A stretch of DNA of 62,820 bases, filler included, from Stramenopiles sp. TOSAG23-3 (lineage: Eukaryota): NCBI GenBank assembly GCA_900128585.1. It is 34 parts of 34 records of this genome, joined end to end, with 100 filler letters (N's around TTAATTAATTAA, not from the genome) between each part and the next. Parts side by side here need not be neighbours in the genome. Positions count along the whole stretch, not along the records: positions 33,411 to 35,159 come from LT645445.1; 33 more parts are not named here. One strand, 5' to 3'. Position numbers and translations under genes: made by a program. Below are positions 2,170 to 54,670 of this stretch, one piece after another. The first letter of the stretch is position 1, and each line of letters begins with the position of its first letter. The notes below the pieces were generated by a model. That model saw only the letters and a program-made list of their open reading frames with translations, had not been told where the DNA came from and made no database searches.

Positions 2170-3501
2170 ATGATAATCAATAATTTGTTTCAACGAAAAA
2201 AGTGTTACGAGAAAAGTGGTTGGTTGAAGAAGCAATATAGAGTTAGACACGTTGCGATGATGAGTAGTGATTCAACGAACCATCTGTCCGAGGCCATTGC
2301 CAAGCAATTCAAAGGAACCCGTGAGGACACATCAGACTTTTCGAATATACTGGGCATTGTAGAAGAGGATGAAGCGGTTTGCAGAACGAGCAAATGGCGG
2401 CAGCCAATTGTTTCGCAAAAAGACAAATTTGGTCGAATTCCATTGCATTATGCATTAATTTATCATGCAAACCTTAAGGTGGTAAAAAGGCTTCATGAAT
2501 CTTGGCCGGAGTCAATCTCTGTTACGGACCGTTGGGGAGATTTAAAAATACACACTGCCATTAGAAGGAAATGCTCGCTTGGCATCGTCGAATACTTGGC
2601 AGTGCACAACTACGATTCTTTGGACGCAGAGGACTGCCAAGGGCTTTTGCCGTTACACATTGCCCTGCAAACAAAAGCCGCGGTGACAATTGTTCGCTAC
2701 CTCATCGATTGTTTTCCTGCTAGCGTTGGCAGACCGATGAAGCCGCTCGGATGGCTTCCATTAAGTTACTCTTTGAAACATTTGGTGGAGCATTTGAGTT
2801 CTAAACTATTTGTCAAATTAATAGAGCATACGCCGCGTCATTTGATAAATACGCGGCGGGATCCCGAGCAGACATTACCCATACAGCGCTTGTTCATGCA
2901 GACGCCGCTGTGGACAGAAGAGAAGCAAGTCACCGTGTTGGAACATTTAATAGGAGATTACGATGGTTGGGACCAGCACGGCGAAGATTTGTTTGGAAGA
3001 AGTCTGATGCATTTGGCCGCGCTTTACAAGTGCTCGGAGGGTGTGGTCGCTCTCATCTTACAAATTGCACCCAAGACGATCATGGAGCGGGACAAGGACG
3101 GGCGACTTCCACTTCACGTGGCGATCCAGCGCCGTGCCCCCTTGAAGAGCATTTTGCTCCTGTTGGAGGCGTACCCAAACAGCGCAAAAATAAGCTGTGG
3201 ACTTTCTACATTGCTCCCAATCGAGCTTGTGGCACGGTACGACACGTCGTACTCACCGATAATTTACAACAAATTAATCGAGTTGAACGGAAGGGATGCC
3301 ACTGTGGTGTCTGAATTGCTTTCGATGACCCACAAACCGTTCCGGACGAACGAGCACGAAGCGTATGCCAAAGAGAAAGGCCACAGTGGGGTAAGTTTTG
3401 AAGCTGGACAGCGCATTCATTTTCAAAAACAAGTGTCCGAATCGGTTTTACCTCAACATTTGGAATCCTTTAAATCCTACGTGTCAAAATGGAGGCAATA
3501 A
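2170..3501 (+). CDS. Ankyrin-repeat protein
   Basis: Repeated GRIPLHYA / GLLPLHIA / GRSLMHLA / GRLPLHVA motifs. Start may be the MMSS at 2257. Confidence 0.85.
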   Translation: MIINNLFQRKKCYEKSGWLKKQYRVRHVAMMSSDSTNHLSEAIAKQFKGTREDTSDFSNILGIVEEDEAVCRTSKWRQPIVSQKDKFGRIPLHYALIYHANLKVVKRLHESWPESISVTDRWGDLKIHTAIRRKCSLGIVEYLAVHNYDSLDAEDCQGLLPLHIALQTKAAVTIVRYLIDCFPASVGRPMKPLGWLPLSYSLKHLVEHLSSKLFVKLIEHTPRHLINTRRDPEQTLPIQRLFMQTPLWTEEKQVTVLEHLIGDYDGWDQHGEDLFGRSLMHLAALYKCSEGVVALILQIAPKTIMERDKDGRLPLHVAIQRRAPLKSILLLLEAYPNSAKISCGLSTLLPIELVARYDTSYSPIIYNKLIELNGRDATVVSELLSMTHKPFRTNEHEAYAKEKGHSGVSFEAGQRIHFQKQVSESVLPQHLESFKSYVSKWRQ

Positions 3502-9203: not shown

Positions 9204-9305
9204 AGNNNNNNNNNNNNNNNNNNNNNNNNNNNNNNNNNNNNNNNNNNNNTTAATTAATTAANNNNNNNNNNNNNNNNNNNNNNNNNNNNNNNNNNNNNNN
9301 NNNNN

Positions 9306-14776: not shown

Positions 14777-14878
14777 AANNNNNNNNNNNNNNNNNNNNNN
14801 NNNNNNNNNNNNNNNNNNNNNNTTAATTAATTAANNNNNNNNNNNNNNNNNNNNNNNNNNNNNNNNNNNNNNNNNNNN

Positions 14879-18664: not shown

Positions 18665-19150
18665 ATGAAAGTTTCAATAATTTTAACAATGGCGGTGGCC
18701 ATCGGCCTAGCCGGGTATACGAACGCTGCGAGGAATTGTGTGTCGCAGTGTGGACAATTTCCGTCGTGTCGGTCTGGTGATTTTTCTTGCTACGCTCGAG
18801 AACGCGCGTTCAGGGCATGCTGGAAACGTTGCGCTGGGGTGCGGCGCTTAGGGTATGCGCTTGACTCTGAAGGGGATGATGATGTATTCGTTCGACGACT
18901 ATCGACGAAGAGAGATAATCGTAATCGATCGTCTAGGAAATGCAAAAAGGCAGGAGAAGCCTTTAGCAGGTGGAGTGGGCATTGTGAAGGTACTTGCGAC
19001 AATCCCAGACCCATGTGCAAAGCGGTTGTCAGCCCGGGCTGCAAGTGCATGAGGGGCTACGTTCGCGACAAGAGGACGGACAAGTGCATCCCACGTGAAT
19101 ATTGTGATTACGCTAAGGTCGATGTAAGTCCCGTACTTTATCGTCTTTGA
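18665..19150 (+). CDS. Secreted Cys-rich precursor with TIL (trypsin-inhibitor-like) domain
   Basis: Signal peptide; C-terminal CEGTCDNP..MC....PGCKC..GYVRD...CIP..C. Confidence 0.8.
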   Translation: MKVSIILTMAVAIGLAGYTNAARNCVSQCGQFPSCRSGDFSCYARERAFRACWKRCAGVRRLGYALDSEGDDDVFVRRLSTKRDNRNRSSRKCKKAGEAFSRWSGHCEGTCDNPRPMCKAVVSPGCKCMRGYVRDKRTDKCIPREYCDYAKVDVSPVLYRL

Positions 19151-19852
19151 TACGAAGGCTAGCGTCGATCCCGTCGATATTTTTACCCGCAAACACAGCG
19201 TGATCGTATCTGGTTCGAACGTTCCAATGGCCGAATTGGAAAAAAAAGAGAGTGCGCGTGTTTGGCACAACTTTCTTACGAACCATATACTCGCTCAGAC
19301 GAAACCAATGCTCCGCTTGGGTTATAAGTATTTAACTACGATAACAAACGACTCTGATGAATTCAGCGAAGAAGTGATCTACTCACAAGGGTCTCCAAAG
19401 GTGGGCGATGTTTTCACGGACTACGATTGGGATTTGGATCGTTTTGTTGAGTACAAATCGCCTCTAAAAAGAAAAGAAATATTATCACCTGGTAATAATT
19501 CTTCTCATTGGAATAGGAATAAAAATAATTCCTCTGTGATGATGATGATGATTGACAACCATCAACGACGAAACGAAATTAAGAAATTTAAAAGATCAAA
19601 TTAAAAAATTGAGATAGGATTAGGGTTGGATTTGAAGTAGTAGTATTTGATTTAAAATGAGAGTCTTAAAACATACTATAGTACTATATATAATTTGTTT
19701 TTTTTTCATATTCATATCATAGTGTAATGCTTTAAAACTCTCATTTTAAATCAATTACATGATATCTTGGTAACGTATTATTTTTGTTCCTTTTTACGTA
19801 AAAATTACTCGCAGCGGTCACTTTCCCTTGCGCCCACGGTGCTTCCCGCTCT

Positions 19853-31631: not shown

Positions 31632-33310
31632 ATGAAGACCTGTGCCAAATGCAAACAAAGCAAAGAACGCACGGAGTTTCACAAGGCTACTGGACGAGGA
31701 GATGGACTTAAACACCAATGCAAAGTGTGTAGGAATGCATCGTCTAGAAAGTGGAAACAAATCAAGCGTGAGAAATTAAAGAAGATTCGTGACAATGAGA
31801 TTCGGAAACCAAGATTCGTAACCCAATATGTCGATAAACCGCTGAGCGTAGAGCAAATTGAACGCCTTAAAAGTAGGGTGGTTAAATGTGCTGGCAGAAG
31901 AAAGCATTGTTGTCATCGCCCAAAGAAATTTGGAAAATTTGAAAAAATTTGGGCACATAATCTTGCAGCACTCGAAGCGTGGAAAAACAAGAACGGCAAA
32001 GGGCTGGATCCGGAACCCTCGTGTGTCATACCACAAGGCGAAGGGAAGAAACCTCTCATGTTGGGACGTTGGTGCGATTACCAAAGAAGTAGATACAGAA
32101 ATACCATGAAGGGCCCTAATGAGAAAAAACTAGCCTGTGGATATCTGAGCGCAGAAAGAATTGAACGCCTTGAACGTATTGGGTTTAATTGGGTCGACAA
32201 GAATCTCCTTTGGAAAAAGGTTTGGGAACATAATCTTGCAGCACTCGAAGCGTGGAAAAACGAGAACGGCAAAGAGCTGGATCCGGAACCCTCGTGTGTC
32301 ATACCACAAGGCGAAGGGAAGAAACCTCTCATGTTGGGACGTTGGTGCGATGGTCAAAGAAGGAAATACAGAAATACCAAGAAGGGCCCTAATGAGAAAA
32401 AACTTACCTGTGGATATCTGAGCGAAGAAAGAATTGAACGCCTTGAACGTATTGGGTTTAAATGGCGCAGAATCTTCGAAGAGCAGAAATCTCGATCTCG
32501 TTCAAAGTATCACAGTTGGGAACGCGGGTTTGCAGCACTCAAAGCATGGAAAAAGGAGCACGGCCAAGACCACGCGCACGGCCACGACGCGCAATGGTGT
32601 GGAAAGAACAAAAATGGTGTCAATTTAGGAAAATGGGTCCTTCGCCAAAGATGGAAATATGCATATGCCACGCGGAACCCTGTTGAGATACATAAAAATT
32701 ATCCACCACATACTGCAGAACAAATTGAACGCCTTAACAGTATTGGGTTTCATTGGACTTGGCATGCCTTGAAGATATCTTGGGAAAAATATTTTGCGGC
32801 ACTCGAAGCATGGAAAAAGGAGAACGGCCAAGGTAGGGACCCACCATCGAAATTGATCATACCACGAGGTGAAGGGGGGGGGCATCTTAATTTGGGACAA
32901 TGGTGCAGTAGACAAAGACAAACATATACAAATACCATGAGGAGCCCTAATGAGAGAAAACCAATTGGAACTCTGAGCGCAGAACAAATTGAACGCCTTG
33001 AACGTATTGGGTTTCAATGGCGCATTGTTCAATGGCGCAGCGCTCGTTCAAAGAAGCGGGACGAAGCTTGGGAACGTAACCTTGCAGCACTCGTAGCGTG
33101 GAAAAACGAGAACGGCAAAGGGCTGTGTCCGAAACAATGGGGGGGGAAGCATTATAAGTTAGGAAAATGGTGCAGACGCCAAAGACAAAAATATATAAAT
33201 ACCATGAGGAGCCCTAATGAAAGAAAACCAACTGGAACTCTGAGGGCAGAACAAATTGAACGCCTTGAACATATTGGGTTTCAATGGGAAGTTACAACTG
33301 GGTCATCGTC
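31632..33310 (+). CDS. Zinc finger plus five helicase-associated (HA) domains (3' truncated)
   Basis: KTCAKC..K...F...DG....CKVC, then five W...AL.AWK..NG...LG.W...QR...E.IERL..IGF repeats; first two are near-identical 273-bp units. Confidence 0.88.
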
Positions 33311-33901
33311 NNNNNNNNNNNNNNNNNNNNNNNNNNNNNNNNNNNNNNNNNNNNTTAATTAATTAANNNNNNNNNNNNNNNNNNNNNNNNNNNNNNNNNN
33401 NNNNNNNNNNATCCCAATACTCAACTTTTCTTAATCTAAAATTTTATTCTGGTGCTTGCTTTCCAGTCTCATGCACTTGGTCTTTCACCTCCAGAAAGGA
33501 ATTGTGCTGAAAATGTGTATTTCTCCCGTTTCTTGCATTTAGAAATTTAGTAGAAAGTAAGAGTATTCACACTCTTCATGCAAGCGTTTGATCAATTTTT
33601 AAGGTCCGTTTGAGTACCTTGAACCTGTCATTTGATAGGAAACGATCAATATTACAATACAATATTTCCTAACAATATATAACCAGCACAACCTGAATAT
33701 TTATCTCCATTGATCGCCAGCCGGCTACTCTTTCCAAGAGATCACAGCACCGGGAACAGATTTTTCTTTCTGTGGTGGCTTTCTGTTCTCGATCGTGTGT
33801 GGTAGCTTTCTATTCAAATTTTATTCATATTATATATACTGTAAAATCCTATCTACATACAACAAGAACACATCGTAGCAGAGGGTCCTTCCCAATGCTC
33901 C

Positions 33902-34120
33902 TCCGATGTAGTGTAGTGTAAGTTTAATACAATTACAGCGCTTTACATAGGACAATTTCTAACATAAATCAATTCAACAATTACAGTGGTCAGCATTTCT
34001 GCCTTTCACGCAGGAAAGTACGTATAATAACCGTCAGAGCAGGATTTCTAAAAAGAATCATCTCTAACAACAATTCCCCCATCAAATAAAATAGCCCGGG
34101 TTCGAATCCCGGCATCGGAA
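33902..34120 (+). tRNA. tRNA-Glu(TTC) split by two GT-AG introns; exons 33902-33917, 33987-34017, 34095-34120
   Basis: Joined exons give 73 nt: acceptor TCCGATG/CATCGGA, D-arm GTGT-AGTTGGTCA-GCAT, anticodon arm TCTGC-CTTTCAC-GCAGG, variable AAAC, T-arm CCGGG-TTCGAAT-CCCGG. T-run follows at 34131. Confidence 0.9.
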
Positions 34121-34593
34121 AAATCCTTAATTTTTTTCTTTTTGCAATGCTATTCCGATGGTATAAATTCATATTTTAAGGCCACTACACGAAAGAAGTA
34201 CTAAATTAGTAGTGTAATATACGTAGATAGGTAATAAAATACACCCTACCGTCAATTAATCGTAGTGTAATGTATTTTAGATAGGGAGAATGCTGTATTT
34301 ATTTTATTGATTCTTCACTATTCACTATTTCCTGCACCCAACACTTGGATTAAGGTCTCGATATTTTTTTCAGGTTAATCAATTGATTTTTTAAAATCTC
34401 AATGCTCTGTGGTGTGTATATATTCGTTTACGGCAAAAGTACTTCATGAGAATACACTCTGGATTTCTCATTCCTATGCTGTGCCTACCTTACCTGAACT
34501 ATATAGTATATATAGTTAAAATTTCGACGCTATTTCAATAGTAAACGCTACATACTGTGCTAGCACAGTGTGTCAGTTAGGTTAACTCCTAAC

Positions 34594-34876
34594 TCCCATG
34601 TAGTGTAGTGTAAGTTTAATACAATTACAGCTTTACATAGGACAATTTCTAACATAAAATAATTCAAAAATTACAGTGGTCAGCATTTCTGCCTCTCACG
34701 CAGGAGAGTACGTATACATAAGCATCAGAGCAGGTAAAGGACCATCTCTAACAATCATCCCCCCTATCAAATAAAATAGCCCGGGTTCGGTAAGTACAGT
34801 AAAGAAAAAGACTCCTATTAAGCATTCTCTAACGAAAAACCGTATCTTCCATAATAACAGAATCCCGGCATGGGAA
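34594..34876 (+). tRNA. tRNA-Glu(CTC) split by three GT-AG introns; exons 34594-34609, 34677-34707, 34780-34789, 34861-34876
   Basis: Joined exons give 73 nt: acceptor TCCCATG/CATGGGA, anticodon loop CTCTCAC, variable AGAC, T-loop TTCG|AAT restored only after removing intron 34790-34860. T-run follows at 34883. Confidence 0.9.
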
Positions 34877-35259
34877 CCTTAATTTTTGTTTTTGCCTCTA
34901 AACTATTTTCCCATTCACCCACACTGAGAATAAGGTAGGCACATCGTATACATTATGAGTATGTACTTTCGTAGTGTAATGTATTTAACTGGACATCTCT
35001 CCATCCATCCATTTCCAAATTATATCGAATTTTTTTTCTTTCCGCTAGTCTGTTCCTGTTATTCTCTTCTCCGAGGAGGGTGGTTTCCTCTTCTTCTTCC
35101 TTCTTCTTTTTTTTCTTCTTTCTTCTTTCTTCTTCTTCCTTCTTCCTTCTTCTTTCTTCNNNNNNNNNNNNNNNNNNNNNNNNNNNNNNNNNNNNNNNNN
35201 NNNTTAATTAATTAANNNNNNNNNNNNNNNNNNNNNNNNNNNNNNNNNNNNNNNNNNNN

Positions 35260-37007
35260 CCTGAGATTCGACTGCGGGGAATGAAGGGTCTTGTTAACCT
35301 AACTTGTAGTGACGCCAACATAAAAGCCATGTGGAACGACATTTACACTCGTGCGGCATTTTTGAAAGCCGCAATGGACGAGGCAAACCCTGAGATTCGA
35401 CTGGACGGTATAAGTGGTCTTCTTAACCTAACTGTTAGTGAAGCCAACATAAAAGCCATGTGGAACGACACGGACACTCGTGCGGCGCTTTTGAAAGCCG
35501 CAATGGACGAGGCAAACCCTGAGATTCGACGGCAGGGTATGAATGGTCTTCATAACCTAACTATTAGTGACGCCAACGAGGCACCCATGTGGAACGACAC
35601 GGACACTCGTGCGGCGCTTTTGAAAGCCTCAATAGACGAGGCAAACCCTGAGATTCGACTGGAGGGTATGAAGTGTCTTTATAACCTAACTTTTAGTGAC
35701 GCCAACCAGACACCCATGTGGAACGACACGGACACCCGTGCGGCGCTTTTGAAAGCCGCAATGGACGAGGCAAACCCTAAGATTCGACGGCAGGGTATGA
35801 ATGGTCTTCATAACCTAAAAGCCGCAATGGACGAGGCAAACCCTAAGATTCGACGGCAGGGTATGAATGGTCTTCATAACCTAACTATTAGTGACAACGA
35901 GACAGCGATGTGGAACGACACGGACACTCGTGGCGTTTCCACACGCTTTTCAGCGAAAGTGGAAGTGGCAAAACCTGAGGTTACCAAACTGCACTTACAA
36001 CACTTGCTAAAGAATCGGTTGCAAGAGTTATGTACCAAGTTTGGTCTTGCGACAAGCGGAAATAAGTCAGCTCTCTCGAAGCGATTGGAAGATTCACTCG
36101 GGTTCAATAATGAGTCTACTAATGACTATAGCCTCTTCACTATGGCAACCTTGAACAAAGAGGACAAAGTTAGGATAGCCAAAAAGATGGGGTATTCACT
36201 ACGAAGCGATTTTATTTACGATAAGCAATTTGAATTGCTGTTACGTGGACTCCCTGAAATTAATTGGAGTGACTACGAACAAGGCGTAAAGGTCCGCGTG
36301 ACCAATTCCGATATGAAAATTGATACGCATTACGTGTATATCCCGGGAGAAAGTGGTAAAAAATTGAATTCAAAAAATAGTTCTGACTGCATAAAGAGCG
36401 TAAAGAACAAAACAGTGACTATAGTCTCTGTGAACAAGGATGAAAATTATTTAACTTGTGATTTCAACGGTGTTCTCTTGCGTCTCCCACCAACTCTTGT
36501 ACATGTTGCCAAGAAAAGAATCAAGGTTTCAAAACAGAAAGTAAAGTGGGCTAAAAAAGCGAGAGAGAAAAGAATCAACGTTTCGAAACAGAAAGTAAAG
36601 TGGAATAAAAAAGCGGGAGAGAAAAGAATCTTTGATGCGAAAAGAATCTTGAAAGCGGGAGAGAAAAAAATCTTGGAATGGAACTTAGATGGATTTTCTA
36701 AAGGAATTAGAATGAGTAATGACAGTTCTGGTTCAAAAAGAAAAACGAATCGAACGAAAAGCAAAAGCTGCAGTGAGGTTTCAAAACAGAAAGATCGAAC
36801 GAAAAGCAAAAGCTGCAGTAAGGTTTCAAAACAGAAAGTAAAGTGGGCTAAAATGAAAAGAATCAACGTTTCGAAAAAGAAAGTAAAGTGGAATACAAAA
36901 GCGGTCAAAGCGGTCACGAAAAGCTGCAGTGCCGCGCCGCCGGACAACAGATTATTTAACGTGTGCGGGGATGACAAAGATTTGGGGAGTGCGTCTCAAA
37001 GCTACAG
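35260..37007 (+). CDS. ARM/HEAT-like 43-aa repeat protein with SAP domain and Lys-rich tail (both ends truncated)
   Basis: 129-bp tandem units (NPEIR..G..GL.NLT.SDAN..MWND.DTRAALLKAA); SAP motif LLKNRLQELC..FGL.TSGNKSAL..RL. Confidence 0.75.
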
Positions 37008-37109
37008 NNNNNNNNNNNNNNNNNNNNNNNNNNNNNNNNNNNNNNNNNNNNTTAATTAATTAANNNNNNNNNNNNNNNNNNNNNNNNNNNNNNNNNNNNN
37101 NNNNNNNCG

Positions 37110-48082: not shown

Positions 48083-48182
48083 NNNNNNNNNNNNNNNNNN
48101 NNNNNNNNNNNNNNNNNNNNNNNNNNTTAATTAATTAANNNNNNNNNNNNNNNNNNNNNNNNNNNNNNNNNNNNNNNNNNNN

Positions 48183-49202
48183 CTGCTCTTCTCCAGCACC
48201 GCTTGGAGTGCATCGATGTACTTCACTGCTAACAAGTACTCGGTCGGGTTCTCCCCGCTGGAGACGACCGCGCGAGCGATTTCTTTCACGCTCTTGGCCT
48301 CTGCGCCAGCCTTGTTGATAATTGCCTGGGCGTCACCCCTTGCCCTTGAAACGACCTGCTGCAGCGCCCCCCGGGCTTCCGTTACAATTTTGTCCCTCTC
48401 GCCCTCTGCCAGTACCACTGTCTTTTGCTTTGTGGTTTTGGCCTGGATTATGATCTCTTTGTTCTGCAACTCGGCCTGTTTCCGTTTCGCCAAAACGTCT
48501 TTCAACTGCCTTGCCTCGACGTGTTGAATCCCCACCTTCTCTACCGTCACGCCCCAGCGCATGGCGATTTGGTTCAGGGAGTACTGGATACCCGTCAAGG
48601 CGGTCGTGTCGTCGACGATGGAGTCCACGTCCAGGGTACCGGCTACGTTTCTTATTTGTGCCTGGAGCAACTTCGACAGCATGTAAGGAAGGTTTTGCAC
48701 GCCGTAAATCATGACCTCCGGCTTTGTTACTTTGTAGTTGATCACAGCGTCCAACGTAACGCGAGCGTTGTCCCTACTGATAACGTCCTGCTTGGGAAAG
48801 TCCATGACTTCACTCTTTGTGAGAATAATGTGATGGTTGATCTGTTCTACTGCCTTTACCTGGCCGTTCTGGGTGATGTAATACTTCCACCTGTGTGTGA
48901 TTTAAAAAAAAAGAGCGAAAAAGTTGAGATTGGTTAGTTACTTCGTACAAGGCAACGGTGGGAGGGGGGGGGAAGGGGACTTACGTGTAAGTTTTCGGCT
49001 GGTAAAACGGCCATGGGACAAAGTGCGGTCCGGAGTGAAGGACCTTTGCAAAGCGCCCAAAAAACTCAATGACTACTGTTTCTTTCTCTTTAATGAAGTA
49101 TATCGATTTGTACGTGCAGTAGACGAAGAGGAGAGCGACCAACACGGCAATGATTGGGCCGACAACTCCGTCTCCACCTTCTGCTTGTAAAAGGACGAGC
49201 AT
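48183..49202 (-). CDS. SPFH/band-7 (stomatin-like) protein with one intron at 48891-48984 (3' truncated)
   Basis: TM, then VIE.FGRF...L.SG.HF..P and DFPKQDVISRDNA.V.LDAV. The GTAAGT...ACTAAC...CAG intron joins the two ORFs in frame (PKTYT/WKYY). Confidence 0.9.
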
Positions 49203-54034: not shown

Positions 54035-54670
54035 ATGAAGTGTGGCGTCGGACGGATGGTGGCGTTTCGTGTTTTGAACAAACGAATTGCCAAGGAGTGC
54101 CGCGGGAATGTTGTCTGTTCCAGGCGCTCGTTTTCAACAAGTTTGGAAACACACCGTGGCCTGCGCCATGCTGCATTAGATTTAGAAAATGTGCAATGGT
54201 TAGATTTGTCGGCGAGTCAAGATTTGGTTTGTAAAAATATGATGTGTGAAAAAGTGGGAGAAGTTTGCGTCTGCAAACTGGCCGTTTGGGCGTCGCAGTC
54301 GAGGCCAAGACTTCAACAGTTGAAGCACTTGGATTTGTCGCATAATGGGTTGGAGATTCTGCCCGATAGCGTTTTTGATTTATTGACATTACGGTCGTTG
54401 AACGTGAGCCACAACAAATTCCATGAACTGCCGGAGGAAATAAGCAGACTTACACAGTTGACAACTTTGGACATCCGGGGCAATGCCGAATTGAACCACC
54501 TCCCCGCTGCCCTGTCCAACCCCGAAGAAGTGGCTTCACTGCAGCTTCGACAAATTTTAGTAGATCAGAGCATGGAAAAGTTTCTGGGAAACGTACACCC
54601 CAAACTTTGGGGCGCTCGTAGTGGTAAGGGTGGTAGTGACAACACGGTTGTTTTGGAAAGAAACGTTTGA
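54035..54670 (+). CDS. Small leucine-rich-repeat protein
   Basis: LKHLDLSHNGL..LP, LRSLNVSHNKF..LP, LTTLDIRGN. Confidence 0.85.
   Translation: MKCGVGRMVAFRVLNKRIAKECRGNVVCSRRSFSTSLETHRGLRHAALDLENVQWLDLSASQDLVCKNMMCEKVGEVCVCKLAVWASQSRPRLQQLKHLDLSHNGLEILPDSVFDLLTLRSLNVSHNKFHELPEEISRLTQLTTLDIRGNAELNHLPAALSNPEEVASLQLRQILVDQSMEKFLGNVHPKLWGARSGKGGSDNTVVLERNV

Follow-up and report, generated by a model that had tools for sequence, protein, structure and literature searches.

Candidate mRNA-type introns in the loops of two tandem tRNA-Glu genes of Stramenopiles sp. TOSAG23-3

The stretch of DNA analyzed here, referred to as the window, comprises 62,820 nucleotides (filler included) of assembly GCA_900128585.1 of Stramenopiles sp. 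TOSAG23-3, and it contains two split tRNA-Glu genes arranged in tandem on the plus strand, the one for tRNA-Glu(UUC) upstream and the one for tRNA-Glu(CUC) downstream. In window order they are framed by open reading frames at 31632-33362 and 35281-37059, both also on the plus strand. The UUC gene (33902-34120, +) consists of three exons (33902-33917, 33987-34017, and 34095-34120) that are separated by a 69-nt insert between D-loop positions 16 and 17 (intron 1, 33918-33986, +), which starts with GTAAGT and has CTAAC 24 nt before its CAG end, and by a 77-nt insert in the variable loop at 46/48 (intron 2, 34018-34094, +), which starts with GTACGT and has CTAAC 27 nt before its TAG end; neither contains a run of four or more T residues (T4+). 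The CUC gene (34594-34876, +) has four exons (34594-34609, 34677-34707, 34780-34789, and 34861-34876) and is interrupted at the same two sites by a 67-nt intron 1 (34610-34676, +; GTAAGT start, CTAAC 24 nt before a CAG end) and a 72-nt intron 2 (34708-34779, +; GTACGT start, CTAAC 28 nt before a TAG end). In addition, a 71-nt intron 3 (34790-34860, +; GTAAGT start, CTAAC 28 nt before a CAG end) enters the T-loop at 57/58 and splits the B-box. Intron 3 is 44% A, with two runs of four or more A residues (A4+) and no T4+ run, and it leaves a 10-nt internal exon (34780-34789, +), which comprises the T-arm's 5' half through G57, and a last exon of 16 nt (34861-34876, +). The T-arm of the CUC gene accordingly reads CCCGGGTTCG (34780-34789), then the 71-nt insert (34790-34860), then AATCCCGG, while the UUC gene has an intact GGTTCGAATCC at 34099-34109, the sole match to it in the window at up to one mismatch. 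When the exons are joined by their coordinates with a script, ARAGORN draws a 73-nt cloverleaf for both genes, as tRNA-Glu(ttc) and tRNA-Glu(ctc); it makes no tRNA call on the joined CUC exons if intron 3 is kept, and in the raw window, with the genes unspliced, neither ARAGORN nor Rfam (gathering score) finds a tRNA. None of the insert sites (16/17, 46/48, and 57/58) is the canonical tRNA intron site at 37/38, and because all of them lie in loops, the introns have to be removed before the body of the tRNA can form. The sequence of both genes reads in every detail as the original prediction had described it, with an intact T-loop and B-box in the TTC gene and, in the CTC gene, a T-loop split by a 71-nt insert that leaves a 10-nt exon.

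The two paralogues are much better conserved in their exons and in introns 1 and 2 than in their flanks. Intron 1 matches in 64 of 69 aligned columns and intron 2 in 63 of 79, compared with 61 of 116 and 65 of 120 columns in the 100-nt upstream and downstream flanks, respectively. This agrees with the earlier claims of homology between the genes for introns 1 and 2 and of an intron 3 without a counterpart in the TTC gene, since none was found in the paralogue comparison. The spliced products differ at four of 73 positions, namely at the wobble base of the anticodon, at a single base of the variable loop, and at positions 4 and 69. The latter two form an acceptor-stem pair that has changed in a compensatory manner between the paralogues (G:C in one, C:G in the other), its two halves residing in the first and the last exon and spanning all of the introns. 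For comparison with related sequences, a metagenome search with a short anticodon-arm pattern, a tRNA-Glu-specific probe, provided 12 contigs (L001 to L012), all of which were fetched; no matches came from a metagenome search with exon 2 and the beginning of intron 2. On three of the 12 contigs (L002, L004, and L007) there is an intronless gene that is identical, letter for letter, to the spliced UUC product, so the exon borders of the UUC gene are fixed independently of the GT-AG rule. The identical intronless homologue and the compensatory 4:69 pair indicate, at the level of sequence, that selection acts on the joined product. Contigs of four sequencing runs, three from RNA libraries and one from DNA, were also aligned to the locus. 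In the DNA run, X2, a contig covers 34665-34834 with six other letters in 170, and in the RNA-library run X4 a contig covers 34665-34868 with four other letters in 204, each extending over intron 2, the 10-nt exon, and intron 3. The CUC gene with its introns is matched in this way by contigs of independent runs at 96-98% identity, and since these contigs cover the introns, its structure is not an assembly artifact. Many marine metagenome runs contain a quarter to a third of the words of the locus; runs X16 to X20 share few of them and give no evidence of habitat or strain.

The inserts follow one strict pattern. All five in the window start with GTAAGT or GTACGT, have CTAAC 24-28 nt before the 3' end, and end with YAG (CAG or TAG), and the six complete inserts in the tRNA-Glu genes of the related contigs start with GTAAGT, GTATGT, or GTAAGC and end with YAG. 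In five of these six, CTAAC lies 10-23 nt before the 3' end; the exception is the insert on L011, where the sole CTAAC is 41 nt before the end and a CCTAAT is nearer to it. Searched on both strands of the 62.8-kb window, the pattern GT[AG][ACT]GT..CTAAC..AG within 200 nt has 19 matches, 12 of which, including all five exact introns, fall within 33795-34860 and seven elsewhere, a clustering that chance does not account for. The 11 tRNA introns (five in the window and six in relatives) contain no T4+ run at all, while A4+ runs occur in five of them (eight runs), and they are 34-46% A. A convincing intron in a protein-coding frame was recognized once in the window, at 48891-48984 on the minus strand, where 94 nt of the form GTAAGT..AACTAAC..CAG join two open frames upstream of the frame at 48131-48805; this intron has runs of five and nine T residues. 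The frame-joining screen for mRNA introns gave 106 candidates that were mostly spurious, and two others with a GTAAGT start, at 19124-19298 and 54271-54453, were rejected on inspection for want of a branch signal and for their coding-like composition. Elsewhere the window is made up of long, continuous frames that are interrupted mostly by assembly linkers, which is why the genome looks intron-poor with strict signals, and the tRNA inserts follow these signals too.

Because the strict signals are present, the 37/38 site is unused, and no bulge-helix-bulge was seen, we read the inserts as spliceosomal-type, that is, as probable mRNA-type (GT-AG) introns that the spliceosome would remove. Multiple introns in the D- and T-arms of tRNA genes are known from Cyanidioschyzon, cryptophyte nucleomorphs, and archaea, as set out in passages of a 2014 review, and there they are removed without a spliceosome (PMC4090602), so that the inserts in the window could in principle be real introns taken out by the tRNA splicing endonuclease and a ligase. 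According to the same passages, introns of that kind need a bulge-helix-bulge, and those of nucleomorphs are 3-24 nt long and have neither GT-AG borders nor branch signals (PMC4090602). In contrast, every intron in the window has all three spliceosomal signals, and the spacing of the branch signal is lineage-specific (23-28 nt compared with 10-12 nt, see below). Inspection of the minimum-energy fold of the precursor revealed no bulge-helix-bulge at the splice sites, a single fold being weak evidence, and the fold is not unusually stable (z = -1.05). Furthermore, only 3 nt separate the 3' splice site of intron 3 from the T-stem, so the 4-bp central helix of a bulge-helix-bulge cannot fit there. 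Of all the explanations that we considered, removal by the endonuclease is the one that we find hardest to credit. Group I and group II introns have a conserved catalytic fold of hundreds of nucleotides and do not fit inserts of 67-77 nt, nor did the window match any Rfam family at the gathering score. The two Glu genes are also the only split tRNAs recovered from the window when GT..AG segments were removed singly or in sets of two or three and the 913 resulting constructs were submitted to ARAGORN, and a search for a split tRNA-Gly, like the neighbor on L002, L004, and L007, gave only chance-level matches.

Introns with the same signals interrupt tRNA-Glu genes in a second, fungal group of contigs. 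L003, L011, and L012 have an upstream cytochrome P450 gene in common, the copy on L012 being 87% identical to a protein of Hyaloscypha (Helotiales), and once the inserts are removed, L001, L003, L011, and L012 all give the same 72-nt tRNA-Glu(CTC) product. The inserts lie at 2230-2279 and 2331-2380 of L003, 1505-1556 of L011, 1688-1752 of L012, and 2251-2301 (minus) of L001. The T-loop introns, at 57/58, are 50 nt long on L003, 52 nt on L011, and 65 nt on L012 and are mutually unalignable; L001 has none, and a further intron sits close to the 5' end of the acceptor stem on L001 and on L003. The distance from the branch signal to the intron end is 10-12 nt in L001, L003, and L012 and 23-28 nt in the marine group, with L011 having CCTAAT instead, and such a difference would follow if the spacing is dictated by the spliceosome of each lineage. 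It should be noted that the acceptor-stem intron lies one base apart on the two fungal contigs, at 6/7 on L001 and at 5/6 on L003, an apparent one-base intron slide.

The T-loop insert itself recurs at neighboring positions: at 57/58 in the CUC gene of the window, L003, L011, L012, and a contig of run X16, at 58/59 in L009, and at 59/60 in L010, where a complete intron of 68 nt is present. On L009 (1-75, minus) an insert of the form GTATGT..TTTCTAAC.. follows T-loop position 58, and the contig ends within it. At the same locus L002 and L004 have a nearly identical upstream flank, as judged by inspection of the alignment, and no insert, and L007, with the same tRNA-Gly neighbor, has an intronless tRNA-Glu as well. 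The comparison of L009 with L002, L004, and L007 looks like a recent gain of an intron. On L002 and L004 a second, tandem tRNA-Glu(TTC) lies approximately 230 nt downstream; ARAGORN calls the L004 copy and leaves the L002 copy, which has several substitutions, uncalled. Closer to the window genes, the contig of the RNA-library run X16 is a UUC-type gene, with two other letters and one gap over 33882-34104, that leaves the UUC match exactly after G57, and its next 46 letters start with GTAAGTA. A contig of the DNA run X2 stops matching the UUC gene at 34104, the same place, and continues for 40 further letters. Conversely, in run X17 one contig combines the CTC anticodon and introns 1 and 2 (with intron 2 of the CTC type) with a T-loop free of an insert; it may come from a partially spliced precursor or from a variant of the genome. 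Together, the two window genes, X16, and X17 thus cover the four possible combinations of anticodon and T-loop intron in close relatives.

The original prediction had placed the third intron only in the CTC gene and had attributed it to a gain or loss after the duplication. Within the window this is what is found, with the intron present in one paralogue and absent from the other, but outside it a UUC-type gene (X16) has an insert at 57/58 and a CTC-type gene (X17) has none, so a single gain or loss after duplication is too narrow an account. An introner or a transposon-derived intron would be expected in many near-identical copies, whereas a search of the window (62.8 kb of the genome) and of the 12 fetched loci gave no other copy of intron 3; its best other matches extend over 10-16 nt with E values of at least 0.4, and it has nothing detectable in common with introns 1 and 2. 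The sequence at its borders contains no target-site duplication or flanking direct repeat, and the alternative raised earlier, that of a mobile element with a target-site duplication, found no backing when it was looked for, either as a duplication or as a repeat family. A single gain of intron 3, specifically in the CUC gene after duplication, as opposed to a loss from the UUC gene or repeated turnover, would account for its confinement to the CUC gene in the window and for its resemblance to nothing detectable, whether introns 1 and 2 or any other sequence compared, and a recent gain at this loop is plausible in view of the L009 insert that L002, L004, and L007 do not have. Against it stand the four combinations in relatives, together with the fact that the intron missing from the UUC gene is the 3'-most one. 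In loss through a cDNA of spliced RNA, the 3'-most intron is expected to go first, which would fit a loss from the UUC gene. We consider a single gain to be unlikely. The T-loop site is better taken as one of ongoing intron turnover or of exchange between copies, and in the window the UUC copy may have lost the intron or the CUC copy may have gained it.

How the genes are transcribed can be approached from the elements in and around them. Intron 1 lies within the A-box (positions 8-19), and at the DNA level the exon 1/intron 1 junction reads TAGTGTAGTGT, two mismatches from TRGCNNAGTGG, in both genes, which bears out the earlier statement that intron 1 cuts the A-box in each of them; the B-box of the UUC gene is perfect. 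Downstream of the UUC gene, runs of seven and five T residues, terminator-like for RNA polymerase III, occupy 34131-34143 (+), 11 nt past its 3' end, with no earlier T4+ run behind the gene body. For the CUC gene, two terminator-like runs of five T residues (34883-34893, +) follow 7 nt beyond its 3' end. The region 33700-35160 contains 14 T4+ runs, none inside either gene body. That T-runs follow the genes and are absent from within them, the introns having A4+ but no T4+ runs, fits a polymerase that stops at T-runs, i.e., RNA polymerase III. In addition, a TATA-like element is located 71 nt upstream of the UUC gene (33831-33840, +) and another 87 nt upstream of the CUC gene (34507-34516, +). 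This GTATATATAC-like element also occurs on related contigs: L002, L004, and L007 have it 52-82 nt before their intronless tRNA-Glu and tRNA-Gly genes, and L010 has it 62 nt before its tRNA-Glu gene, which contains an intron. All tRNA-Glu and tRNA-Gly genes in the marine group are thus preceded by it, at a variable distance of 52-87 nt from the mature 5' end. On most marine-group tRNA genes a CAA-rich motif (ACAACAAG or ATAACAAG) comes about 20-25 nt after the TATA-like element. For the suggestion that the CTC gene may need a non-canonical promoter, the TATA-like element upstream is no more than a hint, and it is not special to this gene because the intronless genes of related contigs have the same one. 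An external promoter may instead be a trait of the lineage, combined with long 5' leaders, and if so damage to the internal boxes might be tolerable, although this is a hint only.

The same upstream element could be taken to mean that RNA polymerase II transcribes the genes from it and that the tRNA is cut from a spliced, mRNA-like precursor. The element is conserved at 52-87 nt upstream with a variable distance from the tRNA, a contig of the RNA-library run X4 (34479-34694) extends 115 nt upstream of the CUC gene, and the normal substrates of the spliceosome are polymerase II transcripts. However, the T-runs directly after both genes, with no T4+ run inside, fit a polymerase that stops at such runs, the X4 contig may be DNA carry-over, and the U6 gene of fission yeast, as described in parts of a 2018 review, shows that polymerase III transcripts can be spliced (PMC5855946). 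Transcription by polymerase II appears improbable to us, less so than removal of the introns by the endonuclease.

Based on the anatomy of the genes, the splice signals, and the comparison with relatives, we propose, with a probability of roughly 0.7, that the two genes are working nuclear genes for tRNA-Glu(UUC) and tRNA-Glu(CUC) whose transcripts need the removal of two and three mRNA-type GT-AG introns, respectively, before they can fold. The host would be an intron-poor, marine, stramenopile-like protist. Transcription would most likely be carried out by RNA polymerase III, perhaps helped by the upstream TATA-like element, and the spliceosome would recognize GUAAGU or GUACGU together with CUAAC and take out each intron. 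In the CUC transcript the two splicing events that flank the 10-nt exon would have to be successive rather than simultaneous, and ordinary end processing would follow splicing. The T-loop intron would be an instance of an intron turnover that recurs in the T-loop of tRNA-Glu and would not be tied to the CUC anticodon. We regard the genes as real and probably functional, in which case they would represent a new class of host for mRNA-type introns.

Several results weigh against this proposal. No spliced joint was seen at any of the five introns in the three RNA-library runs and the one DNA run, and the RNA-library contigs over the genes (X4 at 34665-34868, X16, and X17) contain introns, which may reflect DNA carry-over or unspliced precursor. 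No match to the B-box at up to two mismatches exists in 33700-35160 other than that of the UUC gene, leaving the CUC locus, whose A-box has two mismatches at the DNA level, without one, as was to be expected from the original statement that intron 3 cuts the B-box of the CTC gene. The comparison of signals, in which the tRNA inserts agree with the mRNA intron at 48891-48984, covers a single mRNA intron. A 10-nt internal exon is very short for the spliceosome, and intronless tRNA-Glu copies outside the 62.8-kb window could make both genes dispensable. As to the missing joints, they neither support nor refute splicing, as a mature 73-nt tRNA is not expected in such contigs.

Several of these points would also be met if the genes were dead, that is, if they were tRNA-Glu pseudogenes disrupted by insertions in a cell that uses intronless copies elsewhere. 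In the contigs of the aligned runs neither spliced RNA of the genes nor a clear transcript or transcript start was seen, the B-box of the CUC gene is lost, and the genome is incomplete, so that other tRNA-Glu copies are possible; moreover, insertions in the D- and T-arms of eukaryotic tRNA genes are taken as probable pseudogenes in a passage of the 2014 review (PMC4090602). Random insertions, however, would not all have GT..CTAAC..YAG at the right spacing, nor would they excise to leave a perfect tRNA that equals an intronless homologue. The compensatory change at 4:69 between the copies, the invariant exons and divergent introns at the orthologous fungal loci, the absence of T4+ runs from all 11 introns, and the retention of terminator-like T-runs after both genes are also at odds with decay. 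We find it very improbable that the genes are dead, scarcely more credible than that an endonuclease processes them, and prefer the reading of both as working genes with mRNA-type introns.

Spliceosomal introns in the ribosomal DNA (rDNA) of ascomycetes were reportedly described by Bhattacharya et al. in 2000, as cited in the 2018 review (PMC5855946), and like those, the introns proposed here are of the mRNA type, interrupt a structural RNA gene outside the realm of polymerase II, and are patchily distributed, while the polymerase and the host RNA differ. Nuclear tRNA genes of eukaryotes are also interrupted by canonical tRNA introns, but at 37/38, unlike all of those in the window. A close parallel comes from small nuclear RNA genes: spliceosomal introns interrupt the genes for U6 in fission yeast and other fungi and, in Rhodotorula hasegawae, those for U1, U2, and U5, according to parts of the 2018 review (PMC5855946). 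There, too, GT-AG borders and a branch signal lie within a small, highly conserved non-coding RNA gene; in the case of U6 the host is a polymerase III gene, the presence of the intron varies among species, and reverse splicing has been proposed as its origin (PMC5855946). The difference is that the host there is a spliceosomal RNA in the catalytic center, which explains why it would be targeted, and a tRNA has no such contact. The passage of that review on non-coding hosts names U6, U2, U5, U1, and rRNA, and tRNA is not among them (PMC5855946). In the positions of their introns, the window genes resemble those of archaea, Cyanidioschyzon merolae, and nucleomorphs, which, in the same parts of the 2014 review, have up to three introns per tRNA gene in the D-arm, variable region, and T-arm, and because of these positions are missed by standard tRNA finders (PMC4090602). 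Those introns are cut at a bulge-helix-bulge by the splicing endonuclease and lack GT-AG and branch signals, unlike the window introns with their spliceosomal signals. Passages of reviews from 2014, 2023, and 2026 treat tRNA splicing as endonuclease-based only (PMC4090602, PMC10275265, PMC13149111), and those of 2023 and 2026 state that it does not use the spliceosome (PMC10275265, PMC13149111). A full-text literature search, with subscription journals largely outside its reach, returned no description of spliceosomal introns in tRNA genes.

We now put forward, tentatively, a broader hypothesis, to which we grant slightly better prospects than to a single gain although the odds are against it: that spliceosomal introns are, at the present time, repeatedly reverse-spliced into mature tRNA at exposed loop nucleotides (16/17, 47, and 57-60) and copied back into the genome, and that polymerase III tRNA precursors are routinely spliced by the spliceosome in at least two eukaryotic supergroups, represented by marine, stramenopile-like protists and Helotiales-like fungi. 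An origin by reverse splicing would be in keeping with the loop sites, which would suit an attack on the folded tRNA. Positions 16, 17, 59, and 60 make up the exposed 'variable pocket' at the tRNA elbow, with 47 bulged out, and the insert sites 16/17, 47, and 57-60 all fall in the elbow of the folded molecule or close to it. All of the marine-group sites are loops; the fungal acceptor-stem intron does not fit reverse splicing into exposed loops.

Should the genes work as proposed, there would be exceptions to the rule of textbooks and current reviews that nuclear tRNA introns lie at 37/38 and that a protein endonuclease, and never the spliceosome, removes them, and the spliceosome would be able to act on very short, uncapped transcripts, probably of polymerase III, with exons of 10-31 nt. 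Such tRNA genes are missed by the finders, and where protists and fungi seem to lack certain tRNAs, the gap may therefore be an artifact. The presence and absence of introns at near-identical loci (L009 compared with L002 and L004, and the variants among the runs) would provide datable cases of gain and loss, and in a host of 73 nt every position is interpretable, which makes the long-standing reverse-splicing model of intron gain directly testable. If repeated reverse splicing were true, tRNA-Glu would be a natural, still-active system in which to watch intron gain, and a hidden class of essential tRNA genes would have been missed by standard finders.

Around the two genes, the window bears the marks of its assembly. 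Open reading frames are interrupted by TTAATTAATTAA linkers flanked by N runs, for example at 9206-9305, 14778-14877, and 35161-35259, among others, and because the linkers fall inside frames, the window is a scaffold of joined contigs in which many genes are cut. The upstream frame at 31632-33362 (+) encodes a protein with five helicase-associated domains (HA, PF03457; E 1e-71), and Pfam matches on the proteins of the window include helicase-associated-domain, O-GlcNAc-transferase-like, ApaG, and U-box/ankyrin proteins. For a saccharopine dehydrogenase frame, the best named relatives are oomycete proteins at about 50% identity. A yeast origin, which the long open frames and CTAAC signals might suggest, was rejected on the strength of these domains and relatives, and the source is concluded to be a marine protist similar to stramenopiles. 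Immediately downstream of the UUC gene, the block at 34123-34290 has the highest depth in the DNA run X2, and there it adjoins the 3' end of another, different tRNA, so it is apparently a repeated element found downstream of tRNA genes. Finally, an exact 18-nt motif occurs at 34260-34277 and 34969-34986, approximately 140 and 93 nt downstream of the UUC and CUC genes, respectively, and nowhere else in the window. None of 100 shuffles reached two matches, and the motif resembles the end of exon 1 together with the start of intron 1.

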